The position numbers and the translations under genes were made by a program. A stretch of DNA of 64,000 nt from Chiloscyllium plagiosum (lineage: Eukaryota): the NCBI RefSeq assembly GCF_004010195.1, contig NC_057717.1, forward strand, positions 100,081,185 through 100,145,184, in the 5' to 3' direction. Positions 23,518-62,135 of the stretch are shown here, piece after piece. Under the pieces are notes generated by a model. The model was not told where the DNA came from. It saw only the letters and a list, made by a program, of their open reading frames with translations, and searched no databases. The first letter of the stretch is position 1; every line of letters begins with the position of its first letter.

Positions 23518-23752
23518 GTCAGAGACCAAAACAAACTGCAGATGCTGGAATCCAAAGTTGACAAACAGGAGGGCTGGAAGAACACAGCAAGGCAGGCAGC
23601 ATCAGGAGGTAGAGAAGTCAACATTTCAGGTATAATCCTTCAGGATTGGAGGAGATGTAGTCCTGAAGAAGGGTTATATCTGAAATGTTGACTTCTGCAC
23701 CTCCTGATGCTGCCTGCCTTGCTGTGTTCTTCCAGCCTCCTGTTTATCTACT
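23518..23752. mobile_element. Penelope-derived palindromic element, second subfamily
   Basis: Inverted arms ggctggaagaacacagcaaggcaggcagcatcaggaggt / acctcctgatgctgcctgccttgctgtgttcttccagcc; TSD tcagagtga(t/a)gg at 23506-23517 and 23753-23764. Confidence 0.8.
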
Positions 23753-24783
23753 TCAGAGTGAAGGATTGACCTTTTTGAATGGATTTAGGAATTCCTTCAG
23801 CTGGAGGGGATGAATCTGTGGAACTCTGCCACAGAAGGCGATGGAGTCTCAAATCATTGTGTATTTAAGACAGTGATGGGTTATTTTTCTCTTCTACCCC
23901 TAAGTGTTATTGTGCACAACTGAGTGACTTTCCCACCACCAAACTCTGACTGTTTTTTCAACTAGTAGCCAATTGAATATTTACAAGCAAAGTCTAGATT
24001 AGAGTGGTGCTGGAAAAGCACAGCAGTTCAGGCAGCATCTGAGGAGCAGCAAAAGCCATATGGACAATGCAAACCATAAAAGGCAGGGAAGGTGGTTGTG
24101 ATAGGGAAAGCAGGAAGAGACTAAATCAAAATGGAATTGATAAGTAAGGGGATCAAGAATTTTGGGAGAAGGCAGGAGAAGGAGGTTGAGAAGTATTTAG
24201 CCATAATTGAATGGCAGAGCGACCCAGTGGACTGAGTCGTCTATTTCTGCTCATATATCTTATGGTTGACTGCATGACTGAGGTGTGTACCATCTACAAG
24301 ATGCCCTGCAGTAGCTCACTGTTGCTCCTTCAATAGCATGTTCCAAACAGAAATTTCTACCACCTAGAAGAACTGTGGATTTCAAAACATTGCCTACAAC
24401 TTCCCCTCTTACGTCGTGCATTATCCTGACTCAGATATGTATAGTTATTGCTTTAGTATTGATGGGTCAAAATCCTAAAACCTTATAAGCACCAAAGAAG
24501 TATTTAGAGTGTTTGGGTTGACATGATTCAAGAAGGCAGCCTACCACAACTTTTTCAAGGGCATTTGAAATGAATGACATGCGCTCGCCTCATGAGCAAC
24601 ACCGTTGTCCCAGGACTTTTTCTTTTAAACCCCTAGCTTTTTCTTTGTATCTTTGCATACAAACTCCTCGGAATGAAGTGATGAAATCGATGCTGAAATG
24701 AGACCCAAGTTAGGAAATTCTATGTGAATAATATTGATTTTATGTTTATAATTCAAGCATAGTGTGTCTATCTCTGGGGTGAA

Positions 24784-26072
24784 CGGAGAAAGTGAGGATT
24801 GCAGATGCTGGAGATCAGAGTTGACAGTGTGGTGCTGGAAAAGCACAGCAGGTCGGGCAGCATCCGAGGAGCAGGAGGATCAATGTTTTGGGCAAGACCC
24901 CTTAATCAAGGATGATGCTTGTGAGCTGAGGGGGTGGAGGGAATTTAGCTGAGAGTGCAATAGGTAGATGGAAGTGGGGATAATGGTGATAGGGTTGAGT
25001 GAATAGGCAGGGAAGGAAGATGGACAGGTCAGGAGGGTCGTGGTGAGTTGTAAGGTTGGAGGAGGGGAAATGAGGAAACTGGATACAGTAGATAACGTAT
25101 GGAAGTGCAGGTAAAACTTTGATGGATGTAGAAGGCTCCTTTTGGGGCCTTGGACAGAGGTGAGGGGATAAGCGATTTGGTTTGCAATTCCTGCAGTGGC
25201 AGGAGAAGGTGCTAGGAGGAGAAGGTGGGTTGGTAGGGGGCGTGAACCTGACAAGAGAGTCATGGAGAGAATCGTCTTTGCAGAAAGCAAATAGGAGGGA
25301 AATATATCTCGTGGTAGGGACTGTTTGTAGGCGGCAGAAATGGTGCATGTGTATGGAGGTTGGTGGGGTGGAAGGTGAAGACCAGGGGGGTGGGGTTCTG
25401 TCCTTGTTGTGGTTGGAGGGGTGGGGTTCAAGGGTGGAGGTGTGGGAAGTGTTTGAGATGCACTGGAGGGCATCATCGACCACATTGAGGGCAATTGCAG
25501 TCTTTGAAGAAGGAGGCCATCTGTATATATTGGGGAGATAGGATGCCTATTTGCAGAGCACTTCAGAGAACATCTCCAGGACACCTGCACCAACCAACCC
25601 CACCACCTGTGGTCAAACACTTCAACTTCAACTCCACCCCCCCTCCCCCAACTGCGCCAAGGACATGCAGGTCCTGGGCCACCTCCATTGCCACATTCTA
25701 ACCATCCAACACCTGAAGGAAGAACACCACATTTTCTGCCTTGGGACCCTCCAACCAGATGGCATCAATGTGGATTTCACCAGTTTCCTCATTTCCACCC
25801 CCCGGTCCATCTTATCCCAGTTCCAACTCAGCACTGCCCTTATGACCTGTCCTACCTGTCCATCTTCCTTCCCACCTATCCCCTCCACCCTCCTCTCCGA
25901 CTTATCACCATTATTCCACCTATCACACTCTCATCTGCCTTCTCCCCCCCAGCCCCACCACCCTCGGCTCACAAGCCTCATTCTTGATGAAGGGTGTTTG
26001 CCCGAAACATCGATTCTCCTGCTCTTCAGATGCTGCCTGAACTGCTGTGCTTTTCCAGCACCACACTATTGA
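24784..26072. mobile_element. Penelope-like element with inverted architecture (two opposed 3' portions)
   Basis: GIY-YIG C-terminal remnants (VVKHFN..; MQVLG..EEHHIFCLGTLQPDGINVDF) on +, RT/linker remnants on -. Terminal arms are inverted; TSD ctctggggtgaa at 24772-24783 and 26073-26084. Confidence 0.85.
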
Positions 26073-28818
26073 CTCTGGGGTGAAAGGCCTGTGTTCAAGT
26101 CCCACTTGCCTCTCGTTGTGTAACATAGCTGAACAAGTTAATTAAAATATCACAAATAGGGCTTCCCTTGTATTCCATGATTGAGCATGTTGGATTTCAG
26201 GTACCAATTGTCAGCACAAAACACTTACAGCTCATGTTTAGCATCTTGCTGTCTGTATCCAGTAGAACAGTGTTGGGTCAGACAGGATGACCTAATGGTT
26301 TGACATTTCCTTTCCCAATCTCCATATTTTGGAAGACCACTCAAAAATTGTGATGACATGCTGTTGTTGAACCCTTATGATGCAACCAAGAAAAATAGCT
26401 AAACTCTAGAAAGCAAAACATGTTTTGGTTAGTACTTCAGTGCAGTTTTGAGGAAATAGTTTCAGAAGCATGTTCAACAAAAAGGTAAGGGAGTTTCAAT
26501 CTAAAGGAGAAGTTACACAAGTGCCAACAAAAATGGATGTTCAGACTAAGACATCAGTAAGAAGCAGAAAAGTAATAAAAAGGTGCAAGACTAACAAATG
26601 TTAAAAAAAATGAAGAAAAGGTTATGTAGATGCATTAAAATTGGACAGATGGGAGGATAAATGAATTAGAAAGGGGCATTGATTAAATTATGACAAATGG
26701 AATGACATGGGTAACTGATCTCCACTAAAATCTAGGAAAGACCAAGTGAAATTGTATTTGTTTACTGATGAGGGTCTAGGGAGCTGTGGAGGAGTTTAGG
26801 GTTCCAATGTAAACCAGTCAATGAAGTTAGTGAACAGATAAAAAGGTAACCAAAAACGCTAACAGAATATTAGACTAGTCAGACAAATACTATGGGTATA
26901 AAAGGATAGAGGCTAAGCGTTTTGCAGTAAGCAACTCATCTCTTGCTTTCCCAATGTCTGTTAATTATTGATAAGGCATAAGAAGCTTGATACCATCCAG
27001 AATATAGCAGCCTACTTGGTTGACACCACATCCACTAATATTCATTCCCTTCACTACTAATGTTTAGTGTGTTCTATCCACAAAAAGCATTGCAGAGATG
27101 CAGCAAAGCTTCTTTAATGGCACCTTTCAAACTTAGGAACACTTCCACCTGGAAGGGCGAGGACAACAGCTACATAGGAACACCACCTTCAAGTGCCAAG
27201 GTATCCACAAGCCAGATATGGAAATATATCATTCTTCCTTCCTGTTGCTGGATCAAAATCCTGGAACACCCTCTGCAACGACTTTGGTGACATGCCATCA
27301 CCAAGTGGACTGCAGCAGTTCAAAAAGGCAACTCACCATCACCTTTAAGGGCAAATAGAGATGGGCAATAAATTTAAGCAAGCCAGTGATGCCCACATAC
27401 CCTGAGTGAATGTTTAAACATTGTTTAGGGTTATAATTGAGGAAATGATGTTCCGGTTGGACATACAAATTAGGATTAGGCTACTCAGTCCCTTGAGGGT
27501 GCTGCATCATTCAGTAAGACTATGCCTGATTTGACTACTTCACATTCCTGTCTACGCTTGATACGTTTTCACACTATTGCTTATCAGTAATCCATCTACG
27601 TCTGCCTTAAAGATACTTAAAAACTATTTCCACCAACATTTTAGGATGAATGTTCCAGAGATTCAGGAACCTGTGTGAGAAATGCCTCCTTAGCTCTGTT
27701 TTAAATGAGAAATACTTTATTTTAAACAGTGATTTCTGGATATGGCCTATTGAACCTATCTGGGGTACTGCATTAAGTGCTGAACGTTTGATCTCAAGAA
27801 TGAGGCTTTGGAACAGTGCGAATTCATCAGAATGATGTCTCAAGGAGTCAACTATTAGCATTGCATAGGTGTGGCTTGTTTCCCTTTATGACATCTCCTT
27901 TTACCATCAGAATTAGTACTGCCAATGGGGTAGACCTCATTTTCTGGAGCTATGCTAGAGCTGTTCTGGTCTCTTTAGCATGGAAGTCAGACATACTGGC
28001 AACTCCCTGCAGGAAGTTTGTGCACATTGAACAGTAATACAGTAGTCATGTTACTGGGTTTAGCAATCCAGAGGTCAAGTAGCACCACTAATCCAGAATC
28101 TGGTTTCCAGCATCTGCAGTCATTGTTTTTACTTACTTAAATGAATTGGAGACAACTCTTCCAGAACTAATCAGATGAGTTTCTAATGGCAATCTAGTAG
28201 TTTTACAGTGACAATGCCTTTTATTTCAAATTTAATTAATTGAATGTAAATTCACTGGCTGCTGTAACTGGGATTGAAATACATTTCCAATTCATTAATC
28301 CAGTCCTCTGGGTACCAGTCTAGTAACTTAACCACGCTAATAACATATCCTTCAAGCAAACCATGAGGACTTCTGTCCCCTCTATTGCCAGTGTCCATTT
28401 ACTAGCATGACACCTTTAGAATTTCCTTGTGAGTAACCTTCCATTTCCATCTTGTTCTGTCTTCTTGCACTCTGGAACACACTGTAATTATGGCGAGGAA
28501 AAGTCATATCAGACTCGAAACGTTAACTACTTCTCTCGCTACAGATTTAGCGATCTCCAGCATTTTGCTTCAATGTAATTATAATGAGCTGGCCCCAGTA
28601 TAATTCGGGCGATATTTGCATTGCTCTTAATTATTCAGATAAACCAAAGACTGCCGTTGCTAGACATCAGAAACAAAAGCAGAAATTGCTGGAAAATTGT
28701 TAGTCTTCAGGACTCAATTTCTAGTTCAATAATTTTAGGGTCTGAGCACCTTTTTCCATATCCTTACCCCGACCCCTATACAGTAGACTTTCTCATCACA
28801 CAGCTTGCTTTCACAAAT

Positions 28819-28989
28819 CGTGTTGAGTGTGTGGTGTTGGAAAAGCACAGCAGGTCATCCGAGCAGGAGAATCAACGTTTCGGGCGTAAAACCTTCATCA
28901 GTTTATGCCCGAAATGTCGATTCTCCTGCTCCTCGGGTGCAGCCTGACCTGCTGTGCTTTTCCAGCATCACCACTCCTCACTTTCTCCC
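28819..28989. mobile_element. Penelope-derived palindromic element
   Basis: Arms ggaaaagcacagcaggtca / tgacctgctgtgcttttcc; imperfect TSD tgct(t/a)tcacaaat at 28806-28818 and 28990-29002; nested in an older Penelope subfamily copy (~28660-29270). Confidence 0.75.
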
Positions 28990-30815
28990 TGCTATCACAA
29001 ATAACCCGTTTTCAGCAATTAGTGGACCCCATTAACAGCTATTGATTCTCCCAGGCTGATCATTACCTATTACTTTGCCTAATCGCTGTTCTCTCTCCAA
29101 GAGCTCGATCTATCATTTATTCCTTCCCCTCCCACCTTTAGCAGGTATGCCTACCTTTCTCTAGCTTCAATCAGTTCTGAAGATGGGTCACTGTACCCGC
29201 AATATCAACTATATTTTCTCTTCACAGATGCTATCAAACGTGCTGAGATTTCCCCCAATTTCTGTTTTGATTCTTAATTATTCAGAATGGGCGCTTCAAC
29301 ACACGATTATCTGCCTGAGTATCCCATCCTAATCAGTTGATACCAAAGCCAGTAGAGCTCAATGTAACTAAACTATAATTTGTCCCGTTCTCCTCTCACA
29401 TCACTTCTCTAAATTGTGAATTAGTTTCAGTTACTTTTCATACATTATTCCGAAAAGGTTCAAAGTCAATGTTTAATTCTGCAGCTCTTTCCTCACTCTC
29501 CTGGAGTGGTAGTGGTGATTGGATTGAGTGCATGAAACTAGTCTAGTTCTTCAATAAAGTTCACAATTTCTGCATACAAACGGAACAGAACGAATGACAA
29601 CTGGTTTATCTCAAAGTTAACTCGTATTTTACCGCCTAATTCGGGGCCTTGATAGATGCTGCAAGTTTCTCAGGCCCTTACTGGGATTTCAATAGTTAAC
29701 AACGAAGATTCTACTGTCAAACTTATGGTTGAGGATCATTCCAGTCTGATTTTGATACCCAACATCCCTAACTACGTTCGAGCCAGGAGTTACTTGCCTA
29801 CAATACTATCAAGAGGAGTCTTGCCCTGGTGTAGAATCCGGATGCATTGGAAAGTGATAATAGTAACACTCGAAAGCTCTTTATGATACTTTATTCAGTG
29901 AACTGCAAAAAAACTTGATTTATGTTCAGTACCTGAAAAATGACTAAATTGCGGCTGTAGACTGCACAATGAAACGACGTCGAGTGGAAACGACCAGTTT
30001 AAGTTCAAGGTAACCTCAACCTGGTCGAGTTATTGCCTTCCGTTCAGTTTTTGACCACTGTACAATTTTAATGTTATATTTTGTCGCTGTAGGAATAAAC
30101 AATAGTTTAACATAAGTGATTAGTAAGTATGAATTGATGAGCTGTGCCATTGCTGGATCTTGTTCCCATCACTCGGGAATGGTAGAGAGGCCATAATCAA
30201 TTGCTGTTTCCTTCTCTCTGTGTTGGGTCTATGGAATTATCTTCCTTACACAGTAGTGGAGACTGGATTGGATGGATTCTGGATTATCAAAAGGTCAAAA
30301 TAAAATTGAAAAGTATAAGGGCAGGTCCTCCCCGCCTCAAAAACACACAGTAGACAGGACCCCACATTGGGCACAACTGAAGGAATTATCACAGCCGTGC
30401 TCCCGCTCTTACAGACCCTCATTCTCAGAGGCTGAAAACTTTCAAACCTCAATATGGGGTCACAGCGGAAAATAAAAGTTTGGGAAGGACTGGTACACAG
30501 GCTAGACGTGACTAACCCAACCAGTGTAACTGAACATATGTCTCCCAGCTGCTGCTAGTTACCAGGTTTACACCATCTAACTTCTCGACAGGAAATTCCA
30601 CCAATGATATCTATCCCAGCGAATTCTTGTTGAAAAGTGGAGCTGCTTGGACAGCAGATGATACCAAAGTGAAAAGCTCCTTACTATTAAAAAAATCTGC
30701 TCACCTTAGTTGTTAGTTATACAGGTAACATCTAAAGGCTTGTCAACTTCGATGAATGTACAAGAGTCGGTGGAGAATGATCAACAGCTAAACACCTGGT
30801 TGACTCGCTGCCATG

Positions 30816-30972
30816 GAGAAAGTGAGGACTGCGGATGCTGGAGATCAGAGTCGAGTGTGTGGTGCTGGAAAAGCACAGCGGGTCATGCAGCATCCGAGGA
30901 GCAAGAGAATCGACGTTTTGGGCAGCCTTCATCAGCCTCTCATTCCTGCTGTTCGGATGCTGCATGACTTGC
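30816..30972. mobile_element. Penelope-derived palindromic element with 15-bp TSD
   Basis: gagaaagtgaggactgcggatgctggagatc start; direct repeat tgactcgctgccatg at 30801-30815 and 30973-30987. Confidence 0.85.
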
Positions 30973-37909: not shown

Positions 37910-38721
37910 CTGGGGTAAGGGACAGAAGACTGCAACCATTACACGAGCGCTTGGAGCTGCAATGTCAATGCTGCCCACTATGTAATAAAACAGGGATCCT
38001 GAAATTAGATCTCATTCCACAACAGAATGCATCTCCCACGTCAACATCTCAAAGCATTTCTAACATACAGTACACAAGCTACTGTCAGCGGAAGTAGGCA
38101 ATTCTTTATACTTCCCTATAAGGCAAAAGTGACAGTGCGGGTGTTACCAATTGATAAACCAACAATAGTTACTTAAATCTTTTCGGCATTGAATTAGCCA
38201 GACATCTAAAATGAGATCTTGCAAACCCATCAACAGATCCTTAGCAGGTTTCTTGCATCAATACACTGTAAGTCTAATTCACTGCTGAAATATAAAATAT
38301 TTCTCAGATACAAGTGTTAGCCAGTTATGCGGCATTGCTTATTCATAATGACACAAGTAAAATCTAAACCTAAAATATTGGGATTAAACCCCCATTTAAC
38401 AACATTATACCTACTTGAAAGCCTTTTCCATTGGATGAGTTATTTCAACTTTAGAAAAACAAATCATAAGTTTGTTTCAGTACAGAAGCATATAATTACC
38501 TTGCATGTGTCTTCTGACAGTGCAAGTGGAATTGAATTCGCCAGTGCAGAATTTAAAAAAAAAATTATGCTGTTCTGCGGTGTGGCCATTGCTTTGGAGC
38601 TTGTGAATGCAATTCCTAATTGACAAGCTGGTCCAAAATATTTCAATTTGATTATTTCATGGACTTTGGCTTACTGGGTTAGTTTGCAAACCAATATCTC
38701 TTGTTTACTGCATTAATTAGT

Positions 38722-39046
38722 GGACGGCACGGTGGCACAGTGGTTAGCACTGCTGCCTCACAGCACCAGAGACCCGGGTTCAATTCCCGCCTCAGGCAAC
38801 TGACTGTGTGGAGTTTGTACGTTCTCCCCGTGTCTGCGTGGGTTTCCTCCGGGTGCTCCGGTTTCCTCCTACAGTCCAAAGATGTGCAGGTTAGGTGAAT
38901 TGGCCATGCTAAATTGCCCATAATGTTAGGTAAGGGGTAAATGTCGGGGTAAATGTAGGGGTTACGCTTCGGCGGGTCGGTGTGGACTTGTTGGGCCGAA
39001 GGGCCTGTTTCCACACTGTAATGTAATGTAATCTAATCTAATCTAA
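38722..39046 (+). mobile_element. Near-intact HE1-type V-SINE
   Basis: A box TGGCACAGTGG, B box GGTTCAATTCC, V-domain (gtgtctgcgtgggtttcctccgggtgctccggtttcctcc), (TAATG/TAATC)n tail; CpGs retained. Confidence 0.9.
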
Positions 39047-39970: not shown

Positions 39971-42847
39971 ATATATTCCAGCTACTCACCGTTTTTTGGG
40001 TTTGAAATTAAGGCAGAAGTAAAACTAGCAGCAGGATTAACAGAGAGAAACCTTTGATCTGCCAACATGGTAGGATAGTGAAATAATATTTAAATTGCTA
40101 ATTTATAAATATGATCAAATATTTTACAAAGCTCATAGAAAGCAGAAGGATGGACCTATTAGTTATTACAGCTAAACTTTCATGTCAAAGAGAGAATAAA
40201 AGAGGCAAAAAAGTTATAAAGTACCAACTTGGTCAGAAGACAGATACACCCTGACTAAAATAATAAAAGTTTATTCTAATGCTAACTGAACTGCTGGCTG
40301 TCCCTAATATTTATTTCAGATTTTCAGTTACTTTCTTACATGATTACACTTTACTCAAGTGAAACAGGAACATTTGGAAAATAACATTTATGGCAAACTA
40401 TGTGAAACCACGCTCATTAAAAGGGACATGACACATTGTGTAGTCTGCTGAAAATTAAGTATTAATAAACACAGATCTAATGCAACTTTGAGTTACTGAT
40501 TCAACATCACCTACAGCACCAGTGCCATTTCTAACCAATGCCACTTCTAGGTGTTCAAAATTAGACCCATGGTCTGTTTACAGATACATTTGTAAACTGA
40601 AATCCAACTAAACTGGGAAATAAAATGACCCAAGTATCATATTATACAATATCACGTGACTTGGCTTATCTAACAAACACCAAAATAATTTTATATCAGG
40701 GTACAACAGAACTCCTTGAAGATGTAATTTTTAAAACTGAACATCGGAATATTGTTACCTAAGACAGCACCAATAGTAATTTTCAAACTAGCTTTGGTCT
40801 GAAAAGTCTTCTTGTAGTTGTACAACTTGTTGGGATAAGATAGTCAGATTTAATTATGCTAACACTGAGCTAATATTACTATCACTCACCCACAATCAAA
40901 CAACTAGAAATTGAATGTTTACTCCACAAGAGAATTTCTCTGTCAATGTGAAAAGGACATTTAAGCTCTGAAGATATAATTGTTCAGGAAAGTAATTTAA
41001 ACCAAAATTTCTGGAAATGAACCTATGCAGGAATCTATTTTAATAAAATATTAAGAGAAACGCATTATACAAGCGACCAAAAGGGCGACCTGAAGAACTG
41101 AGAATACAAAACTCATTTCCTCACATACACCAGTTCCCTCAATGAAATCAGAATTGGGATCAAGCAGTCTTCCTGTACAAGATTTTCAGAGACATGTTTT
41201 TAACCTTCAACTAATGAGAGGTCATCTGCTACAGAAACTAATTCCTCTTCTCATTTGTTCCTCAATCAACTGTAGTACTGTTGTTTATTCTCAAATTGAT
41301 AAAGTCCCAGAGTCTGACACTGCTCTTAGAGTCATACAGCATGTGCTTCTGTGAAAACAAAAATGAGCGCTGCATTCACACTTCAGTATGAATTGGTTGT
41401 GACTCCCAAGCTGAAATGAAGCTGTGCTGGGTCAATTGGGCACTGAATTTGGACTTCAAAAACAAGAGAGTAGATGCACTCTTAATTGTAGCACTAACAT
41501 TCTGATGTTACTATTCTCTTCCTCACCCATCCCAGCATCACACTAACAAGAATGGAGTGGCAGAACATACATTCTTTATTATTTTTACAAGAGCTTTTGA
41601 GTCATTACATGAAGTATTAGTGCTGGAGAATGGAACTGTGTTTCAGGAATTTAGTGTCAGCATCAAATGCTCCCAGATCCAGTGTTGGAGAGGTTTGACC
41701 AAAAAGGTCTCTTTCCAGCCTGGATTAATCTATCGCAGGTCAAAGATTAGAAGACATGCTGCGAGACTGATATGACATCTCTACTTCTTACACCGATCTC
41801 TCAGAGTCATGTTGCCAATTAGTATCATTTGGAACTGGTTGAGACTGCCTGACGCGTTTCTCATATGATTCTGACCATATCCAGTGGGAAAAAGATATTT
41901 TTGTCTCAACAATATGGGCCAGACCCCAAAAAGCCCAACACATTCTTTTTGCAGTAGAAATAAATATCTTGTCCAAGTGCTTACATTTCTAATATAAAAT
42001 ATCAGAATGTCATTGGACCACGTGAACCAGGATATCAAACATGCATTTTTACAACCAGAAGATTTTTTTTTCATTAAGTAAAATAAACTGAGAAGTCTCT
42101 CAAAGAGCACAAAAGGGAACTTTCAGATTTGCAACGAACAAAATCCATGGAACGGTGTAACATTCTCAATATCATCATGACAACAAAGGTAATAGAAGCA
42201 GTTCTGAGAGAAAAGTGGTTACGAGCTCCTCTACCAGCAACTATAATTATTTTATTTAAAAATTTAGGAAGCTTTACCAGGTTGTGGATGAGAGGTGTTG
42301 AGGATGTTGTCAGAGGCCCCTCTGCAGTAAATATTTAAGGCAATCTGACAAAGCACTAGTGTTGCAGTCTTTACATTGGAACGACAACTTGTAGTATGAA
42401 ATTTCACTCTGTTTCTTAATGGTGAGAGAAGCAATGGGAAAATGGCATTTAAATGTTCATATACAGGAACCACAAAGTTGGTGTACAAGTACAAAAGAGG
42501 AAATGGAAATACTAATACACTGTTTGCCTTTACATTATTCCGAATTCAGAAGTGAAGAAGTGGTACAGAGGGTAGACCAAACTTAGCTTCTTTATCTTGA
42601 AGACTGACCTATAATCTAAGTGTTTTAACATGAGATTCAATAAAACATATATGAACAATTGTTTCTATTAATCACATCCAGGCCAAGTGGACACAATTCT
42701 TTTTGCCATATGGCTGTGGTTGCTCAGTTATCAAGTTCATTTATGACAGATCAATGGAGTTTTGAATAGGAATTAAGAACTACTAGGACACTGAATAAGG
42801 TCAGTTGTAAGCTTTTAGAATTATAAAGCAGACTTAAAGGAGGTTGG

Positions 42848-42950
42848 CTTAGAGTGGTGCTGGAAAAGCACAGCAGTTCAGGCAGCATCCGAGGAGTAGG
42901 AAAATCGAGGTTTTGGGCAAAAGCCCTTCATCAGGAACACAGGCAGAGTG
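42848..42950 (-). mobile_element. Penelope terminal fragment with decayed hammerhead motif
   Basis: Reverse strand reads CTGATGA-A-GGGC-TTTT-GCCC-AAAA-CCTC; similar stub at ~23990-24050. Confidence 0.7.
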
Positions 42951-44620: not shown

Positions 44621-44745
44621 TGGATAACATTTCTTTTTCGTGGTGATGGGAGGGGAGGGCAATGAACTAACGGCATCTTTCACCAATTCCCCAGCCCTGC
44701 TCATTAACCAGGAGGCAAATTGAGAGCAAAATCTCTCGCTCTTAC

Positions 44746-45021
44746 AATATTCAGCACGCTTTTCTTCCTGTCGCTCTGGGCCTCAGCACTTTGCTCCTGG
44801 CCAGCGGCCACACTCCTCTTGCCTCCATTGTCTATGTCCCCGCCGCTCGGCGCGGCTCCCCCTTCGCTCCTCAGCCTCTCCTCCTCCATCTTCTTCTTGA
44901 AAAGTGCCATGAAGCTGCCATCGTTGGCGAAGGCGTTCACCCCTTTGCTCTCCGAGCCACCGTCCGCTTCGCTCGGCTCGGAGCTTCCAGAAACTTCGCG
45001 GTTCCTCCGCCTCTCCGCCAT
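44746..45021 (-). CDS. TRIR: TRIR coding exon 1
   Basis: MAERRR...GVNAFANDGSFMALFKKKMEEE...SVLNI; donor |gtaaga. The ATG is 2 nt from an N gap, so an upstream start cannot be excluded. Confidence 0.9.
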
Positions 45022-45712
45022 CTNNNNNNNNNNNNNGGGCGCCGGGGGCGGAGCGGGCGGGGGGGGGGGGGGGTGGTGTGTGTGTGCGTGTGTGGAAATG
45101 GGAGGGGAGAGGGTAAAAGACAGCCGCCAGAACGAATCTACACCCTCAAACACAAACAAATCACTGGCTCAACAAAAAAACGGGGCCAGCCGCCTCATTT
45201 TCCTCTCCAAAGAAGGTGTGGTCGAGGAACCCCCCCCCCGCCGCCGATATCTTGGATTAGGCGACAACTGCGCATGACCGAACTTTAAACCGCCCCAAAT
45301 ATTTCCCTTTCCTTCCCCCCCTCAGCCGAAACAAAAACAAATTTCAATGACCACGAATCGTAACATTTCAAATTTCATGATCAGTGAACGTGCAGCTGCC
45401 CGTTCTAAAAAAGGATATCGATTGAAATGTGGTACCGAACCAATCTGAACGCGTTTTACTAAAACGGCGTTGGACCAATCAGTGTCGAAGATGGAAGGTG
45501 GTGTGAAGGGGGCAATACGTGGAGTTTCGAGGCGCGGAATATCTCGAATGTGAGAAAAAATACCCTGGTCTTAACCCCGCTTTCGATGGCGTTAAAATAG
45601 CCCGCTCGTCAGATGATCGTGTTTTTAATTATTAACTACAAATAAGTTGAGAAGTTCGAGGTCGGGTGATTCATTCTCTCTATCAATCCTCGGTCACGTG
45701 GTACCTTCCGAG
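45022..45712. promoter_or_regulatory. Bidirectional CpG promoter shared by TRIR and GET3
   Basis: Divergent ATGs ~0.69 kb apart. CCAATC at ~45440 and ~45476, NRF1-like tgcgcatg ~45269, E-box gtcacgtgg ~45693; 13-N gap at 45024-45036. Confidence 0.85.
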
Positions 45713-45864: not shown

Positions 45865-48229
45865 GTAATAAGCGAGGAGAGACCACCTTTACCCACTAAC
45901 TTCAGCATGTTAGACCTTGTCTGTATTAACCTAAAAAGAGCTGCCTCTGGAGAAGGTGGGAAATGAACACGGGTCCTGGCTCAGTAAGCAGGGATACTAC
46001 CACTGTGCCATGAGTGCCCCAACTCCAATGAATTATACTTGTTACTGTGTTTACGAAGGTCTCCCTTTTTTTTTCTGCTGATGAGTGCAGTCAATGGCCA
46101 CGTTAACACGACACATTTAAAATCAGCAGGTGTTCCTCAGCACGGTGTCCGAGTTAAGTTTCATAGAGTCATTGATTCAGAAAGCATGGAAACAGGTTCA
46201 AAACTCTGTTAATCCCAGAGGATTAGCCAGGGAAGCACTATGCAGAGAACTGAGGGTGCTGAAGGTCTGAAACAAAAACAGAAATTGTTGAAGAAACTTA
46301 ACAAGTCTGGTAGTATCTGTGAAGAGAAGTAGAGTTAAAGGTTTGAATCCAGTGACCCTCCTTCAGCAAACACATTGTGGTGTGTACAGTTAAATTGGAG
46401 CTTTGGACAGTTGGGCTTAATGTGCTGCTCTGGAATATTTAATTATTCAGGTTTTTTTTAGAGACCTAAGGGGCAACCTTTTCACACAGAGAGTGGTGCA
46501 GGTATGGAATGAGCTGCCAGAGGAAGTGGTACAATTGCAACATTTAAGAGGCATTTGGATGGGTATATGAATAGGAAGGGTTTGGAGGGATATGGGTCAG
46601 GTGCTGGCTGGTGGGACTAGATTAGTCGGGATATCTGGGTCGGCTTGGATGGAAGGATCTGTTTCCATGCTATACGTCTCTCTGACTCTAATATACTTGC
46701 CAACATCACATCTGTCTATGCATAACTTTCATTTCACATAGGCAAAAGGAACTAGAGAAGACTATTCCCCTCAGACTTATTCCACCATTCAACCAGGTTA
46801 CAGTTGATCTTCTGCATCAGTCTCACTTTCTTGCATTATCTTCATGTCTTTTATGATCACGGATTGAAAATGAAGCAAAGGGAACAGGTTTAGACCATTC
46901 ACTTTCTTTTTGTGCTTTCTCAATCTTTCAAAGTGAATGTGGCTGATCTTCTATGCTGACTCAACTGTGTGACAATCTGTCAATCTCCGTTTTGAATATA
47001 GTCAAGGTGACTATATTCATGTTGAAGGCATGTTGAATTCCAAAAGTCAAGTTCCCCACAAGTGAAGAGCTTTCTCTGTCTAAAGTGGTTGCCTCCTTAT
47101 TGTGAGGTTATGCTACCTAGTTTTTGACTTTCCAACCAAGGATTGTAGAATGTTCACAGCATAGAAGGACATCGTTCCCACATCATGGTTACATTAGTTC
47201 TCTGAAGCACTAGTTGAATTAGTGTCCCTCTTCCACCCCCACCTTTTGTCCTTTAGCCCTGCGCATTCTTCCTTTTTTTTAATTAGGTAACCAATTACCT
47301 TTTTGTATGTCTTAATTGAACCTCTCTTCACCATATTAAGACAGTACATTGTAGATACTTGTCACTCACTATTAATGAGGCACAACTTCAGTATCCAATG
47401 CATAGAGTCCTGTGTGAGTAAATTTTTCTATTTTAATGAGATCATATCACTAAATGCAAAAGCAATACTGGCTTGTTCTAATGAAATCATTCAGTTGTGG
47501 CAACCTAAATATCAGCAATCAGTTTGTTGAGCCTTAGTTTCACTTCTTTGAAAGCAAGTGTGTCCTTCAAAGGGTACAGATGCCAAAGCTGTATTGAGTA
47601 TTCCTGGTGTGCTCTCTCTGGATCCCTTGAAAATAGCAGTAAAATACTTTTTTTGTAAAAGTAAAATGCAGTGGATGTTGGAGTTCTGAAAAATGAAGTG
47701 ATGGAGAAATTCAGGTCTGGTAACACTTGTGGTGTAAGGAATGGTGTCAATGTTTTGAGATCAATTCCTTCTTCCGTGGAAGAGTCCGATTGGGTTGCAA
47801 ATTTTAACAGTTTCTCTCACCTGAGATTCTGTCCGATCTGTGTTTCTTCAGTATTTTCTGTTTTTACATTCCTTTTTCTTGTACCGCCTTGCACTTAATA
47901 TTCTAAGTGCCTTCCAAACTGCCGAAACTTGTGACCAAATTTAATTGATTATTTTTTAATGTCATTCAATAGGGCATATTACTGGGAAAAAAACTTTTAT
48001 CCTTACAGATTTTGCTATCAGAGGGGTTTCTGTCAAATCTGGATTGGAAAAATTTTGTCTTTCTTTTATTAATAGTATACTTCTGAAAGAAATTTATGGG
48101 GTTGTGTAAAAGTAGACTTTAGTGTTTGTCCTACAGAAGGATGTGACCAGCTTTAAGGAATACCGGTTTCATCTTTTGTGTGGTGATTTGACAATAAAAG
48201 GACACTATAGTCATTTTTTCAAGGTTGCC

Positions 48230-49070
48230 CATAGAGAGTCATAGAAATGTACAGCATGGAAACAGACCGTTCGGTCCAAACCATCCGTGCCGACCAGATC
48301 TCCCAACCCAATCTGGTCCCACCTGCCAGCATCCGGCCCATATCCCTCCAAACCCTTCCTGTTCATATACCCATCCAAATGCCTCTTAAATGTTGCAATC
48401 GTACCAGCCTCCTCCACATCCTCTGGTAGCTCATTCCATACACGTACCACCCTCTGCTTGAAAAAATTGCCCCTTTGGTCTCTTTTATATCTTTCCCCTC
48501 TCACCCTAAACCTATGCCCTCTAGTTCTGGACTCTCCGACCCCATGAAAAAAGACTTTGTCTATTTATCCTATCCATGCCCCTCATAATTTTGTAAACCT
48601 CTATACGGTCACCCCTCAACCTCCGCTCCAGAGAAAACAGCCCCATTCTGTTCAGCCTCTCCCTGTAGCTCAGATCCTTCAACCCTGGCAACATCCTTTT
48701 AAATCTTTTCTGAACCCTTTCAAGTTTCACAACATCTTTCCGATAGGAAGGAGACCAGAATTGCACGCAATATTCCAACAGTGGCCTAACCAATGTCCTG
48801 TACAGCTGCAACATGACCTCCCAACTCCTGTACTCAATACTCTGACCAATAAAGGAAAGCATACGAAACGCCGCCTTCACTATCCTATCTACCTGCGATT
48901 CCACTTTCAAGGAGCTATGAACCTGCACTCCAAGATCTCTTTTGTTCAGCAACACTCCCTAGGACCTTTCCATTAAGTGTATAAGTCCTGCTAAGATTTG
49001 TTTTCCCAAAATGCTGCACCTCGCATTTATCTGAATTAAACTCCATCTGCCACTTCTCAGTCCATTGGCC
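48230..49070 (-). mobile_element. Young 5'-truncated CR1/HER1-type LINE
   Basis: ORFs 48521-48955 (RDLGVQVHSSLK...LYRTLVRPLLEYCVQFWSP..LERVQKRF) and 48211-48504 are the CR1 ORF2 C-terminus, followed by a 3' microsatellite-like tail. Confidence 0.92.
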
Positions 49071-51540: not shown

Positions 51541-53795
51541 TTCAACAGAAGGGCATCATTTAGCCCCTCAAGCCTGACCTGCCATTTAGTGAGATCGTAA
51601 CGATTCGGTGAGCTAGCGTTATTTATGCACCTTTGCCTCATATCCCTTAATACTTTCACTTCAGCAAAATCAATCAGTCTTGGTTTTTAAACAAGCACTT
51701 AATCTAGCATTGATTACTATTTCCAGAAGGGTGTTCTATCATTTTTGTATGTATGATTTTATTTCTGAAATGTCTGGCTCTAGTTATAAAACTGTGCCCC
51801 CTCATTCTGTACTCTCCAAATCAGGCAGTTCAGTTCTTTCTGCTATTCGATTTTATTTTATATTTTGTACTTTCATCAAATCACCCCTTAATCTAAATTA
51901 AAGGAATTACTTGCACCCAAAAGTAAAGTTGTACAGCATTATTTTAATCAAAAGGTATTCTTTGTGAAATGCTGCACCAATAGGAAAGACAACGGACACT
52001 TCGTTGTCTGATTGGATGATTCTTGGTTGTCAGCCAAACAACTTTGTTTACTAATTTCTAATATGTCTATGATTAATCACTGTGTTCAATGGCAATAAAA
52101 CTGCACAATTTCCATAAAGTTGCTTTGTCTGGTTTTCGCAGAGCAGTGTTGCAAGAACAGGCAGGCACAGATTTAAAGCGATTGGGATTGAGTGGTTGGG
52201 GTTAATCCACAGCCTGAGAGCACAGTGAAAGCTTGTTGAGTCGAGGCTTTAAGATGCAATTGATTATTATCTGAAAACAGAGTGTATAGGGGCGAAAGGT
52301 TGGAAATGGCAATAAGTGCATCATTTCAGAAAGCCAGTACAGACATGATAGGCTGAATTGCTGCCTCCTATGCTGCGCCTATTCTTTAATTCTAGGCTCT
52401 CTAGTCTTGTTTAAATCTGTAACATATAATCCATATGATATGTTTAGTGTTTTTTATTTTTGAAAGGTGAAGTTGATTAGTGTACATGACTTCCCCATGT
52501 AGCTTTGATTGGGCCCAGCATGGAGAACCTGCACCCTGGCTTTCAAGCAGAACTGAGGTGGAACTGCTACATTTATCTTTTGTCCCTTGTGAATGCTTTT
52601 GAGCCTGATGAACTGCAATAATTATAGAATAATCTCATTGGATATGGTAATATCTTTGTGGGAATTTAAAAGGTTCCTATGCAGTTTGCCCCTTGGTGTA
52701 TTGGGAGCACATTAGCAGAAGCTGTTGTCAAGAAGACCTTCGGGAGTGATTAATGATTGAAATGGATTTCCTAATCAAGTAATGGAGAAGAAAACTTTGG
52801 AATTGTTTAAGATGGCTCGTGGGAGTGATTGGGAGACTGTATGAGATAACTGTGACAACATAGCTAAGATAATATCCTTACCTAGAGAGTAGTTACAATC
52901 TGGACTCATTATCTCATGGAGCAGTTGTGATTTTTGGGAAAGCTTTAAGGAATAGAAGCTTGCGAGACAGGGAAAAAGGGTTATGCTGAAAGCGTTAGAT
53001 GTTGGGAGGGGATTCATGTTGAATATAAATACCACTTGGGATGAATAACCTGTTTCTGCACAATAAATTTATGTAATGTTTCAAACTCTTACCAGTTGTG
53101 AAATCTATACTTTGATGGATTTGAAAATATTACCTTTTTAATAATTTTTATATTTGGAGGATCTGAATTAATCCAAATCTAATTTGAAAATGCATTGTTT
53201 GGCGTAGGGGTTTTAATACTGAGGTACTTGCTGATCTGATTGCAAAGTGAAACAGTAGAAAGTAAATCCTATTGCACACTGAATCTCCGACCCATTATTT
53301 ATTTTAATAGATCCAGGTCACAGCCTCTATGAAAAATTTAAAAGATGTATAATCATAATGTAATATTACATCAATTAAGATCCCATTCTCAACATTCTTG
53401 CCTATCAGTGACACAGTGAATTATTGTGGCTTTACTTGCTTGTTGATCTACACTAATAGAGTCAAACAGCATGGAAACAGACCCTTCAGTCCAACTCATC
53501 CATGCCAACCAAGTTTCCCAAACTAAACTAATCCCATTTGCCTGGTTCATATGTAATTTATGTAAAGTGCTTGATACAAACTTAAGCATTGCAACATTGA
53601 GTCTTCACGTGTTGATGCTCTTTAAAAACATGCTTTTATGGAATTCTAATATTGGTGAGGTTCCAAAACCTCTGTCAAATTAAGTTGTTCAAGCATATAA
53701 AATTGGTGGGCACTGGTTTGCAGGGGAACAAGGTTCCAAGAATGCATTTGTTGTAGGTAGTTTTTAATATCCTTTTGTTAAATTGTGTTTTACAG

Positions 53796-54047: not shown

Positions 54048-54570
54048 GGAGAAAGTGAGGTCTGCAGATGCTGGAGATCAAAGTTGAAACTTTATTGCTG
54101 GAACAGCACAGCAGGTCAGGCAGCATCCAGGGAACAGGAGATTCGACGTTTCGGGCACAGGCCCTTCTTCAGGAATGAGCAGAGAGTGTTCAGCAGGAGA
54201 AGATAAAAGGTAGGGATGAGGGACTTGGAGGAGGGGCGTTGGAAATGTGATAGGTGGAAAGAGGTCAAGGTGAGGGTGATAGGTCGGAGTAGGATGGAGG
54301 CGGAGAGGTCAAGAAGAAGACTGCAGGTCAGGAAGGCGGTGCCGGGCTGGAGGGATCCGGCTGAGACAAGGTGGGGGGAGGGGGGATGAAGAAACTGGTG
54401 AAGTCCAAGTTCATCCCCTGCGGTTGGAGGGTTCCCAGTCGGAAGATAAGACGCTCCTCCTCCGACCGTCGGGTTGTTGTGGTTTGGCGGTGGATGAGTC
54501 CAATGACCTGCATATCCTCGGTGGAGTGGGAGGGGGAGTTGAAATGCTGTGCTACAGGTTGGTTGGGTGC
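54048..54570 (-). mobile_element. Young Penelope-like element 3' fragment (GIY-YIG C-terminus plus terminal repeat)
   Basis: Minus-strand translation NQPVAQHFNSPSHSTEDMQVIGLIHRQTTTTRRSEEERLIFRLGTLQPQGMNLDF is typical of Penelope endonuclease ends; CpGs retained. Confidence 0.9.
54141..54176 (-). ncRNA. Putative minimal type I hammerhead ribozyme
   Basis: Minus strand: ATTC-CTGAAGA-A-GGGC-CTGT-GCCC-GAAA-CGTC-GAAT = stem I, CUGANGA, stem II, GAAA, GUC cleavage triplet, stem I'. Confidence 0.7.
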
Positions 54571-55796: not shown

Positions 55797-55904
55797 ATGT
55801 GCAGTATGCTTGGACTCGGTGACATGAATGCAGATCAACTTGCTTCAAAGCTAGAAGAAACCTTACCTGTCATTCGTTCAGTCAGTGAACAGTTTAAAGA
55901 CCCG
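55797..55904 (+). CDS. GET3: GET3 coding exon 5
   Basis: [36 protein letters not shown]; ttcag| and |gtaat. Confidence 0.96.
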
Positions 55905-57224: not shown

Positions 57225-58338
57225 GTAATGTTATAATGGCATAAACTTTCTATTTTGTTTGTATTTTGCACAGAAAATGTGACCAGCACCATATGACCAG
57301 CAATATTAGCCTCAGGCTTGAATTGGATCAGCTATTTGTTTAATGCACTCTGGGTTTGAGCTCATTTTGGATTATCCATTTGAAATTAAGAGATAGGAAC
57401 ACTAATGTTAGCTTACCGCTATGCCAGCATCTTCCTATGTTCCTTTCTAATTTTCACTGCTGCTGTCTGCACCTCCAAGGTCAGTGCATGCCAGCGATTT
57501 CTGGAACTGAAAGTCATTGATTCCTCACACTGGATGTGTGCCAGACCCTCTGAGTAGCTGTCCAAGCACACCGCTTCAAGGAACCATTCATGATCATGTC
57601 AGTAGTAATTCACAGGTTCAGGCTAATGTCTTGAGGGCAAAAACAGAAATTGCTGGAGAAGCTCAGCAGGTCTGATTGCATGTATGGAGACAAAGCAAAG
57701 TTCATGTTTTGAGTTCTGTGACCCTCTTATTTGAATGTTTTGATGCCATGGGTTCAGATCCCACCACTGTTGCTGGTGAGATTAACAAACCGATTCATTA
57801 ATAAATTTGGAATAGAAAGCTGGTGTCTGTAATGGTGATCATGAAAGTTATCAGCAGTTTTTAATAAAGCACCTTGTTCACTTAAGGAAATCTGCTATTC
57901 TTATCTGGTTTGGTCTACATGTGCCTTGAGATGCAGAAATGTAGATGGCTCTTCCTTGTATTCAGATCAAGGCCATCAGGGATGAGCAATAAATCCTGGG
58001 CTTGCCAACACTACCCACATCAAATACTTTTTAGAAAAAGGAGTTGGCTGTTCAGTTTCTTCAGTGTGTTTGATTATTTAGTCAGATTGTAGCTGTTTTG
58101 TAGTTCAACTCTATTAATCCCTTCTTTGACCTATTCATCTGATGTCCTTGCTTTCAAAATCCCTTTTGAAAATTTCAAATAACTCAGAGAAGGAGTTTCA
58201 AGTTACCTCACCCATCTGTTGCAAACAAATGCCCCAAGATCTTTGAAGGTGGTTCCTCAGACTTGTTTTGAGATTGTGGGTGATTTGTGTCAGAATGTGG
58301 TCTCTTTAAATTTTTTTGCATGGCTATATGTGTAAGGT

Positions 58339-58581
58339 GCTGAAAATGTGTTGCTGGAAAAGCGCAGCAGGTCAGGCAGCATCCAAGGAACAGGAGAATC
58401 GACATTTCGGGCATAAGCCCTTCTTCAGGAATGTCTTCAGGAAGTCTTTCCTCATTCCTGAAGAAGGGCTTATGCCCGAAACGTCGATTCTCCTGTTCCT
58501 TGGATGCTGCCTGACCTGCGCTTTTCCAGCAAGACATTTTCAGCTCTGATCTCCAGCATCTGCAGTCCTCACTTTCTCCTC
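58339..58581. mobile_element. Penelope-derived palindromic element with two opposed hammerhead motifs and 15-bp TSD
   Basis: ~95-nt inverted arms; direct repeat ctatatgtgtaaggt at 58324-58338 and 58582-58596; hammerhead cores at 58458-58485 (+) and 58401-58428 (-). Confidence 0.92.
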
Positions 58582-58971: not shown

Positions 58972-60514
58972 ACAGACTTCCCTCATTCCGTTTCAAAACT
59001 GAGGCAAAGAGATCCAAGATTTGTAATTTATTAACACTGTTTGTAGGAAGGAGTTGGGGAGGGGATGCCTGGATGTTATTTATTGTTTTTGATCAATTTT
59101 TGATTTCTGGTTATTGTAACTTTTAAGGAGGTGATTTTGCATTGCCTATATGTGATCTCAAGACGTTGTGTCAAAGTTGTAGAATAGAGCATTATGTATC
59201 TACAGCTTTATTCTGTGATTAACCACTTTAAAAGAAAATGGCTTTTGAGCTTCAAACTCTTCCCCTCCTCTTAATGATTTTCTGTCCTCTCTCACGTGAC
59301 CCTATAGTCTTGAGGACTCAATGCATTTTCTGTAATCCTCCTTCCAGTAGTGGTTCAGTTGCGGTTGCTGCTTCTCCAGTTGAACACCTCAAAATGGAAG
59401 TGATACTATAGGAGCAACGATTATATTAGGAAGCAACAGTGACCCCTTTCCTACTCCCCACCTCTGCCCCATTCCTTTCCACAGATGCTGCTACCTAAAA
59501 ATAGTGTTACGAAACTGGCTCATTAAACACTTTGACACAAGCAAGCTACTCTCATAACTCCAGGTTTCATCTCAGCAGCAATTGAAGTTGTTAATTATTT
59601 ATGTGAATGGGAGCCAGCTGCCCAATATTAGGCAATAAGTTCACATTTTTGAGACCAATTTAACATTTCATATATCCTACAAGTGTTTCTTTAGAGTCTT
59701 CCTTATTTCACTCACCTATCCATTAGGTGAGCACACCAAATACATCTTCTGTCTCTTTCAGAACATGGGTTATATGAGAAAGCTACTCTCATCCTGACCA
59801 CTGACAAAATACTTAAAACGGTGCATTAGGTTTAAAAACTTATCTGGCATTGCTTGTTCTGGTGTTGTCAGGCATCAGATTTGATTTAACACTTACATAA
59901 GAGTTTACCTGTGTTGATATGCTGCTTTGAATGCGCTCCGTGCTTTATGGGATCTTTTTCCAATTTGGAAAATATCTTTATGAAGAGAATGGGCTATGAA
60001 GAACCTATGCACACTTGGTATTTTTTGAAACCTGTCCCTTTTGTTGCATGGTCTGTTTGCAGATTCCCTTGTAGCCGTTGTTTTCTTTAACACTGTTCAT
60101 GGTCAGACTCTGGACCAGATGGGAGTTGGTCTGGAGCCTCTTCTCTGAATTTGGGGTGAGGAGTGGGATTGGACTGTTTATACTTTCTGACTGAATCTTT
60201 GCATCTGTTAAATGGCTCACCTAGTTTAACATAATGAGCCATTATGGAGCAGGAAGATCAAATGGTGGGCAAAGTACAGAGGTCAAAGTGGTGACGTTTG
60301 CCAGGGCAGGAGTTGACAAGACTAGCTATGGTTCCTGCTGCTTGTCCTTGTCTGTATTCTCCTGGGCTGATGAGTATTTGGAAATTGCTTGTTGGCCTGA
60401 CACCTGAAAGTGCCCACTTAGTACAGAAGGCTGTCTAAACTGCGCATGGTGTCCATCTGACAATCAACACCTTTTATTTGAATGGGGGCATTTATAATGT
60501 GGGGGAAGAAATTC

Positions 60515-60520
60515 AATAAA
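60515..60520 (+). terminator. Candidate polyadenylation signal of GET3
   Basis: Canonical AATAAA ~1.5 kb after the stop with GT/T-rich sequence downstream. Confidence 0.5.
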
Positions 60521-61984
60521 TACCTAATTATTCATGGTGGTTTCACCACACACAAGTACTGCAATTGTTTTTTAATAGTTTGTGAAGACTGTGATGAGTT
60601 GTCTTGAATGCATAATTCTGAGACTGTCGTTGAAGTCAAAATGCAGACTAAATACTACAGATGCCATACACCACTTGGTGACTGCAAATAGTGTGTGTTT
60701 TATTTCCCTCCCACATCGAGGACTGCATGTTGAATTACAGGTCCACTCTGCTCCAGTCAGTGTTCTGAAAAGAGTGCTTCCCAAATGGTACAATAGATCG
60801 AATTTGTGTTTTAATGTTCGGGAAACTGTGGGAAAGACAAGCTTATTTAAAAGGACTAGGGCAATCATCCCCTGCTTTCTGTTCACTTTAGACAATTATC
60901 TACTCTGCAACAGACACTTCCCATTGACTAAACAGACAGTTCCTCGAGTTTTAACTAACCAACTCTCATTCAAGAAAGATGGGCAGAGAGATGGAGGGAA
61001 GAATACATAACCCGGAATGCTTTTTTTTAGATAAGAAAAACAACCTGCTAGCAAACAACAAAGATAACTCATAGAATTTAAATTAATCTTATATTTTAAT
61101 TTAAAGCCCATCCCCAAAGTGCTTTTCTGCAGAGTGACCTTTTTGGTGGCCTCCAATAGCTCATTTGATTCCAAATGGATGCCATGTGGCTGAGTAGTAT
61201 ATGTCAATAATTCCCAATCTATATTGACTAGACAGAATCCATCCCATTTAAGGGAGGTGGTCCAACATTTGGCATCTGAAGGTAGGGCTGGTAAAGAGAA
61301 ATTTACCTGGGATTCCTACTCCTGAACTGTTTGTAGGGTGTCTGAGCATGGTTGGAAGATACACATTTGTGGGTGACGAGTGAGCAGAATGTACCTCAGT
61401 GAATTGATAGCTTGTGACACTGCAAAAAGCAGTGATAAGGGCAAGATACTGGAAGTAACTGACTGTATGACCAGACCCTAACTATCAGCAGAAGAAAGAA
61501 AATTATAGAGAAAAGTTATCTTTTTAAAGTAGTAACACTAATTGCTATTAATATTGTTTGAGTTCAGTTTAAATTGTACAAGGGCAAACTTTAAGTATTG
61601 TATTGTTTACAATAATTTCTGGGATGGAGATGGGGACTAAATGAATTAAAACTCTTGAAATATATAATTATTTCAGGCTACTGTGTTTTTAAAAAAAAAA
61701 ATGCAAGAAGGGCACTTGGAGCTTGCAACTTGGTTTGTTATATTGTGTATTAGAGACGCTTCTGAGAGCAACCATTACAGTTCACAGAAGAATGTGGGAG
61801 CAGTGATGATTCCTTGGTTTCTAATGTTTTGAAGTTGCTCACCTTTACTGGCATAGGCCAAACATAGCAGTTGCAAATCAGAATCTTCCATTATTGGACC
61901 AAGCCTGTCTCCTGAAAGAAAGGATCACCACATTTTCCATTTGCATCTGCCTCTGTGGGAAGTCATACAAACTCAATCAAAGGT

Positions 61985-62135
61985 AAATATTTAACTTAGC
62001 TCGCTGAGCTTGTTTTCAGATGTTTCGTCACCATACTAGGTAACATCAGTGAGAGTCTCTGGTGAAGCGCCTCTCTATTCAAGCTCAGCGAGCTAATTTA
62101 CTTACTATCAACCTGAGCTACTAATCTTCTCAATC
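61985..62135. mobile_element. Palindromic element of a further Penelope-like subfamily
   Basis: Inverted arms ttagctcgctgagcttg / caagctcagcgagctaa. The minus strand carries TCA-CTGAT-GTTACC-TAGTAT-GGTGAC-GAAACATC-TGA, a hammerhead with a core deletion. Confidence 0.6.

Follow-up and report, generated by a model that had tools for sequence, protein, structure and literature searches.

Stems that change in step in the hammerhead motifs of Penelope-like elements from the shark Chiloscyllium plagiosum

Metazoan Penelope-like elements (PLEs) carry minimal hammerhead ribozymes (HHRs) that show low activity as dimers and none as monomers, and of which one genome may hold several covarying families, such as 6 in coelacanth and 8 in Xenopus (Cervera & De la Peña 2014, PMC4209133). 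In the Poseidon element PAc of Anolis carolinensis, HHR cleavage was observed only with protein and was dispensable for insertion in vitro (Frangieh et al. 2024, PMC11167929). Here we analyse a stretch of 64,000 nucleotides of Chiloscyllium plagiosum (contig NC_057717.1, positions 100,081,185 to 100,145,184 of the forward strand; hereafter the window), in which an initial annotation had pointed out four hammerhead motifs with differing stems, and had read them as a sign of selection on the RNA fold in active ancestors and as part of a large ribozyme repertoire. The RNA class, its location in PLEs and its family-level covariation are already published, and nothing reported here is new in kind; what may be useful is the extension to sharks, the very large count, a lineage-level switch of the dimer palindrome and the age-ordered states of stem I. 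No shark-specific report of such motifs was found in a literature search that excluded most subscription papers.

We consider it probable that these motifs are minimal type-I hammerheads in the terminal repeats of three PLE lineages, that their stems coevolved in the master elements for dimeric cutting of multimeric RNA, and that the copies present today are neutral fossils. This reading draws on the observed anatomy of the motif, its link to GIY-YIG 3' ends, the covariation, the invariant core, the copy number and the decay.

Motif anatomy and carrier elements

All four motifs are present where the initial annotation had placed them, and they share one layout: a short arm, CUGANGA, one base, a hairpin, GAAA, two bases, UH and a complementary arm. 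Judged by sequence, they are minimal type-I hammerheads of PLEs, a class described in 2014 together with its family-level covariation, which the annotation overlooked, as it did the broken stem I pair of the commonest subfamilies. The motifs and the pieces belonging to them are:

54141..54176, minus strand: intact minimal hammerhead of subfamily A1, the youngest; stem I AUUC/GAAU, stem II GGGC/GCCC, palindrome ACGU; identical to the subfamily majority
54050..54570, minus strand: 5'-truncated Penelope-like insertion with GIY-YIG C-terminus (54415-54567), 3' UTR, hammerhead and a tail of ~90 nt
23659..23693, plus strand: subfamily B hammerhead (AGUC/GACU); core intact, palindrome (CG>TG) and stem II decayed
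23551..23644, minus strand: partner of the 23659 copy in inverted orientation; arms of 70 nt that are 94% complementary
29173..29210, plus strand: subfamily C hammerhead (AGUU/AACU); lesion GAAA>GCAA, palindrome lost (CG>TA)
62017..62052, minus strand: subfamily D1 hammerhead (UCA/UGA; GUUACC/GGUGAC) of the Poseidon-like lineage DE; 3-nt deletion in the 5' core
62078..62131, plus strand: tail remnant of lineage DE beside the 62017 motif, found by profile

The arms agree with those first described. The strand of the 54141 copy, which had been left unstated, is minus, and its predicted cut lies after C17, between 54145 and 54144. The stem GGGT/ACCC with loop CACTGT given for 29173 turned out to be a private mutation, the family having the stem GGGTC/GACCC and the loop ACTG.

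To group the copies independently of the stems, we clustered 856 lenient candidates by the tail beyond stem I and dropped small clusters, which left three unrelated lineages of 271, 63 and 57 copies. The first three motifs of the annotation share tail homology and belong to lineage ABC, the fourth belongs to lineage DE, and lineage F occurs in the window as a tail only. Hence, the four subfamilies do differ, as had been claimed, but the copies fall into two unrelated lineages. Lineage F has tens of thousands of copies and the palindrome AGCU; its cut site reads GUA or GUU, and its 3' UTR contains a (CA)n tract. A cluster of 7 members whose tail is AT-rich was discarded, its core-like match falling by chance within this 3' UTR.

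A minus-strand frame ending at 54328 matches two proteins named from Chiloscyllium punctatum, which agrees with the shark origin assumed in the annotation, and the GIY-YIG frame of the 54050..54570 insertion is identical at 38 of 51 residues to one of the two, P0002, a protein with reverse transcriptase (RT) and GIY-YIG. P0002, the nearest full protein to ABC, combines RT, a CX4CxxC linker and GIY-YIG within one open reading frame (ORF), showing matches to RVT_1 (E=0.008) and GIY-YIG (E=2.5e-4) that are both under Pfam's cut-off. The ORF fragments of the window and of the locus gave no relevant match to Pfam, so the link to PLEs runs through P0002. In 9/9 ABC clusters and 3/5 DE clusters, some copies have a GIY-YIG C-terminus upstream of them on the same strand, and lineages E and F were tied to PLEs by translating the upstream DNA. 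Going only by the linker motif and the position of the ATG, ABC appears to be Neptune-type and DE Poseidon-like. In most copies, the truncation falls near the motif.

Paired changes in the stems and the palindrome

Covariation was studied on the majorities of 16 tail-defined subfamilies (4-45 copies each), with columns anchored on the core. Pair 1 of stem I is C-G, A-U or U-A and pair 2 is U-A, C-G or A-U, both paired in 16/16 subfamilies, and pairs 5 and 6 are paired in 1/16 and 3/16. In stem II, pairs 1-3 are paired in 16/16 and pair 4 in 14/16, the closing pair G10.1-C11.1 being G-C in 14/16 and G-U in 2/16. Three to four pair types each occur at pairs 1-2 of stem I and pairs 2-3 of stem II. 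Overall, 53/64 cells of stem I and 62/64 of stem II are paired, compared with 14-24/64 and 16-34/64 in slid registers. The catalytic core (CUGANGA, GAAA, UH) is found in all 16 majorities, and a single unpaired base separates A9 from stem II (A in ABC and F, U in DE). Had the consensuses been unpaired or the covariation non-significant, the annotation's idea of fold selection would have failed; the 16 consensuses pair, and an exact within-lineage permutation on distinct haplotypes gave p=0.0014 for stem I and p=0.0083 for stem II. When all 351 column pairs were compared, four were paired in 16/16 with at least two Watson-Crick types, and all of them are true pairs.

The same is seen along 14 edges between subfamilies, set by hand from the clustering and the tree. 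All seven double changes led from one pair to another (chance 4/9 each, p=0.003). Five single changes kept the pair (two of which trace to a CpG artefact of a single majority), two broke it and one restored it; two more went from mismatch to mismatch. The 11 core columns did not change at all, whereas the free N7 changed 7 times. With a pair-count tool run on 15 real copies, the covariation score was 0.509 against 0.181±0.034 in shuffles (0/500), while the pair-count and type-count measures did not rise above the shuffles; three F rows stood one column off in this alignment. Individual copies vary as well: pair 3 of stem I in lineage DE is U-A in 23, C-G in 22 and G-C in 10 of 57 copies. Stem II compensation in C2 was found in 93/100 of the matches listed (hand count). 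The corresponding check of A5 was less clean: by hand count among 100 GAGC-loop matches listed, the compensating U occurs in 49 and C is kept in 48. Because the far larger GGGC family should itself supply part of the copies keeping C through single mutations, the support it lends is weak. The stems thus changed in step between subfamily masters, and the compensatory change attested by the permutation and the edge counts argues, as initially proposed, for selection on the fold in the active ancestors.

One could suppose instead that the hairpins were kept for a non-catalytic reason, such as coding, the binding of a protein or the initiation of reverse transcription, or that the pairing reflects shared descent only. 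In lineage DE, stem II does begin with an ATG that opens a conserved frame, the Rfam hammerhead models find no match in the window, and only three independent lineages were sampled. Nevertheless, the invariant letters are exactly the catalytic set of the hammerhead, N7 being free and N17 being C, U or A throughout, and the within-lineage permutation and the event counts remain significant. We therefore regard this explanation as very improbable.

The palindrome at 15.1-16.1 reads ACGU in ABC and DE and AGCU in F, and there is no helix III. It is self-complementary in 14/16 subfamily majorities, the other two showing the CpG-decay form CA. Lineage F surfaced in a search for cores without CG (37,059 matches against 536 in the control), and ~90 of 100 AGCU matches listed belong to it. 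A search for A/T palindromes returned mainly CpG decay of known families, with no separate family among the 100 matches listed. A fourth lineage with the palindrome AUAU, represented by 6 identical copies with identical flanks, was considered and dismissed, these being a single decayed C2-like motif that a larger, young repeat carries. At these six places (L276-L281, G000:C1) the sequence is identical on both sides of the dead C2-like hammerhead, as would be expected of a very young larger multi-copy element or duplication carrying an old fossil.

The lineage-wide switch from ACGU to AGCU fits the published dimer model. Having no helix III of its own, the motif would work in twos: two copies in tandem on one transcript would form helix III via ACGU or AGCU, and the paired motifs would be cut after N17, probably with the aid of the element's own protein. 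Such dimer- or protein-assisted cleavage of element RNA, by analogy with published work on other species, is the most likely mode of action. Reverse transcription would start ~60-110 nt downstream of the motif and would usually be cut short; with a start so close, nearly every insertion, even the shortest, would carry the motif, and a high count would follow without selection on the copies.

Abundance, decay and the stem I series

In the window, a structure-aware scan gave 6 matches at a score of at least 5, compared with 0-2 in each of 10 shuffles. The plain core pattern gave 15 matches against a shuffle mean of 6.6, which is weak on its own, as 1/100 shuffles also reached 15. Family profiles trained on copies outside the window detected 26 remnants, 18 of them reaching the 5' core (1 per 3.6 kb), and 0 in the reversed sequence. 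Core lesions are present in 13 of the 18 motifs, and 2 of the other 5 have lost the CG palindrome, in agreement with the initial impression that most copies are lesioned, often at CpG. Core and palindrome are kept by 3, two of which (54176 minus and 58454 plus) have the first stem pairs as well. For 15/26 remnants, a head-to-head partner lies within 500 nt. Besides those listed above, the remnants and related pieces are:

58454..58489, plus strand: A2 hammerhead with intact core (AUUC/GAUU, U·U mismatch), within a 99% inverted repeat
58397..58432, minus strand: its A2 inverted partner, palindrome CG>TG
11851..12033, no strand assigned: head-to-head A2 pair, loop UCAU, core lesions in both
3580..3745, no strand assigned: head-to-head A2 remnant pair cut within the motif (profile, inverted repeat)
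25523..26077, plus strand: PLE 3' end with a GIY-YIG remnant and, after it at 25980, an A-type hammerhead bearing the lesion C3>T
24814..25483, minus strand: inverted PLE piece, an RT and endonuclease (RT-EN) remnant (25101-25483) with a decayed A-type hammerhead at 24912
28819..28971, no strand assigned: head-to-head A-type pair; the minus copy keeps the core and has lost the 5' arm of stem I
28495..28566, plus strand: decayed C2-type copy, stem II of the GAGUC/GACUC type
30844..30936, minus strand: A-type copy with stem II deletion and G12>A
42843..42938, minus strand: A3-type copy, loop UUUU, G12>A
46270..46368, minus strand: decayed subfamily C copy (profile)
47689..47866, no strand assigned: very decayed C-type inverted pair, weak profile scores
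50035..50115, plus strand: subfamily C remnant cut within the motif (profile)
57638..57725, minus strand: subfamily C remnant cut within the motif (profile)
23989..24061, minus strand: A-type tail only, without motif (profile)
268..327, minus strand: lineage F (AGCU palindrome) tail only (profile)

Near-perfect inverted repeats (94-99%) at 11851-12033, 23551-23754 and 58337-58550 would form long RNA hairpins if transcribed, and they draw spurious Rfam miRNA matches: an Rfam scan of the window gave no hammerhead family at E<=5 and 12 weak matches, mostly to miRNA models, the strongest of them on inverted repeats.

The very large genomic number that the annotation had surmised is borne out by the scan of the whole genome (3.56 Gb). 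Cores with CG and spacers of 11-18 nt gave 140,845 matches (control 911), and the union pattern gave 227,174 intact-core matches (control 7,123), a net of ~220,000 or ~1 per 16 kb. An unbiased sample, taken as sixty 10-kb stretches at even spacing and amounting to 581 kb once N is discounted, contained 231 remnants, of which 177 reach the core (1 per 3.3 kb), 46 have an intact core and 33 the core together with the first pairs; extrapolated, this amounts to roughly a million remnants in the genome. Compared with this, the earlier figure of one motif per 5 kb falls a little short for remnants (1 per 3.3-3.6 kb) and is about three times too high for intact cores. Head-to-head partners within 500 nt were found for 130/231 sampled remnants and direct neighbours within the same distance for 36/231, the copies being mostly solo or inverted.

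Decay was followed in 115 of 415 tail-found candidates, namely those that also keep the upstream flank. At CpG positions, the catalytic G12 was changed in 23/97 copies, its neighbour C11.1 in 24/105 and the palindrome in 50/185, and among non-CpG letters 7.1% were changed in the core and 7.0% in the tail, the latter figure being biased low by the selection of the set. This pattern fits neutrality, with a few kept copies possible. Folding in context predicts that the copies at 23659 and 58454 disappear into long hairpins made with their inverted partners, that those at 54141 and 62017 form stem II but not stem I, and that the one at 29173 forms neither stem as drawn. In single-cell poly(A) reads of a related organism, one run contained 1,060 family reads and the other 0; both strands were represented, 93% of the reads ran into unlike flanks, and there was no pile-up of ends at the cut site, which this type of library cannot show. 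If transcribed within pre-mRNAs, the many head-to-head copies would probably yield abundant double-stranded RNA.

These data bear on the idea that the dispersed copies form a functional repertoire, kept by the shark host to act on transcripts of its own. In its favour are the ~220,000 net intact cores, the family RNA in the library of a related species and the somewhat lower change of non-CpG core letters relative to stem letters. However, G12 is lost at about the rate of the neighbouring CpG, intact cores are concentrated in the youngest subfamilies, 16/18 window motifs are broken, a lone motif has no helix III, and the two inverted-pair copies folded in context are predicted to hide the motif in a long hairpin. 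We give this idea hardly any credence. Since most copies are broken and G12 decays like neutral DNA, the word repertoire in the initial annotation likely overstates the case, and the window copies are mostly a fossil record.

Within this record, pair 3 of stem I is of particular interest. The arms AUUC/GAAU of the 54141 copy are real, yet they mark only the youngest subfamily, A1 (~1% divergence); in the A subfamilies that are older and more numerous, pair 3 is U·U or U·C. Out of 43 intact cores in the unbiased sample, 19 read GAUU (U·U) and 8 read GAAU. By falling age, pair 3 is G-C in C, C2 and B (~10-16% divergence), U·C (8-10%), U·U (3-8%) and finally U-A (1%). A tree built with pair 3 masked gives this order too, with A1 nested in A2 (support 100/99) and an uncertain deep root; because B and C2 have long branches and the single C row is misplaced, the rooting of the series leans on divergence ages no less than on the tree. 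The predicted probability of stem I is <0.1 in the U·U subfamilies compared with 0.5-1.0 in A1, B, C and C2. The restoration in A1 does not prove selection, because 4/6 single changes from U·U give a pair.

Such a series raises the alternative that the hammerhead, although real and conserved in its fold, rides along as a passenger that is weak or can be dispensed with; transposition would not require it, and masters with a damaged stem I would be free to spread. Consistent with this, the U·C and U·U subfamilies span ~3-10% divergence and dominate the intact copies (19/43) with a barely predicted stem I, hammerhead mutants of the Anolis PLE insert normally in vitro (PMC11167929), and Craig et al. 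(PMC8557442) float HHRs as mere parasites of PLEs. On the other hand, if the motif were dispensable, one would expect its erosion in some, at least, of the masters that succeeded, whereas the core underwent 0 changes over 14 edges against 7 at N7, pairs 1-2 of stem I are paired in 16/16 and the palindrome is self-complementary across lineages. We consider the passenger role unlikely and retain coevolution of the stems for dimeric cutting as the probable explanation.

Several observations nevertheless weigh against the latter. The U·U subfamilies, with stem I predicted at <0.1, are those amplified most, and stem I is paired at pair 3 in 12/16 subfamilies and at pair 4 in 9/16. The motif of lineage DE overlaps a reading frame, which adds coding constraint; within it, lineage E (L184, L193, L198, L052) combines an N17 of C or U, both Leu in the overlapping frame, with a fixed A·G or G·G mismatch in stem II, and coding and folding constraints thus overlap. 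Seven false column pairs were listed at 14-15/16 paired or below, six of them reaching 14-15/16, so single columns are not decisive. The consensuses are majority calls from 4-45 copies, three of them with CpG-decay letters, and the edges were set by hand. In the decaying copies, stems were changed more than the core (11% vs 7.1%, p=0.0008), an effect that subfamily mixing would produce and that was left in the figures. Finally, in the literature, hammerhead mutants of the Anolis element insert undiminished in vitro and no reads end at the cut site (PMC11167929), and Naiad PLEs spread without the motif (PMC8557442).

It is possible, if doubtful, that the shark subfamilies form a dated fossil record of compensatory evolution, step by step, each mismatched stage of which reached thousands of copies or more. 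Should this be true, and should the mismatched ribozymes cut more weakly, the series would amount to a natural in vivo test of how much cleavage a Penelope element needs, set in a genome whose ~220,000 intact cores far exceed the published counts consulted. In any case, the age-ordered states of stem I bear on the role of the PLE hammerhead.

Neighbouring features and described systems

The window also contains two exons on the minus strand: 17302-17673, encoding a RING-H2 finger that ends in ...AALLSSYETN, which looks like RNF11, and 44704-45168, adjoined by an N gap and containing the motif NAFANDGSFMALFKKKMEEE, which resembles TRIR/C19orf43. Repeated 3' ends with an RT-like frame (9042-9209, 12070-12237, 48216-48958 and 53431-53542; the fragment tested had no Pfam match) look to us like CR1/L2 LINEs, and a second dispersed family (3246-3426, 3768-3896, 4491-4672 and 38721-38903) resembles a tRNA-derived shark SINE.

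Among described systems, the shark motifs resemble the metazoan PLE minimal HHRs most closely (PMC4209133). Both have the core CUGANGA-H-G...C-GAAA-palindrome-UH, no helix III, a short helix I and one unpaired base before stem II, and both are located in the pLTR behind the RT-EN frame, mostly in solitary truncated copies and in opposite-strand pairs. They differ in that the 56 motifs of Fig. S3 of that paper include no cartilaginous fish, in that stem II of the shark motifs often has 4-5 bp, and in that a stem I mismatch is fixed in the commonest shark subfamilies. The ~220,000 intact cores of the shark stand against ~4,000 in coelacanth and ~9,000 in Xenopus (PMC4209133), figures that are not strictly comparable because the descriptors differ.

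As in PAc (PMC11167929), the ATG at the start of stem II opens a frame in lineage DE, and insertions end ~60-110 nt downstream with variable tails. Unlike in PAc, ABC and F were not seen to open a frame there on a shallow look; activity and protein dependence are results obtained for PAc. The CX4CxxC linker of P0002 is shared with the Neptune and Nematis PLEs of Craig et al. (PMC8557442), a clade assignment made by the motif alone, and 5' truncation with an adjacent inverted copy is likewise described for PLE insertions there.

Traits of canonical type-I hammerheads and non-LTR retrozymes are absent, as the shark motifs have no helix III, no 6-bp helix I and no Rfam match at E<=5, and are mostly solo or inverted. 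With the non-LTR retrozymes of Li et al. (bioRxiv 10.64898/2026.07.22.740005), which are present in the one chondrichthyan sampled there, they share the type-I hammerhead and a PLE origin; however, those retrozymes form head-to-tail tandem arrays, whereas the shark motifs are the dispersed 3' ends of coding PLEs.

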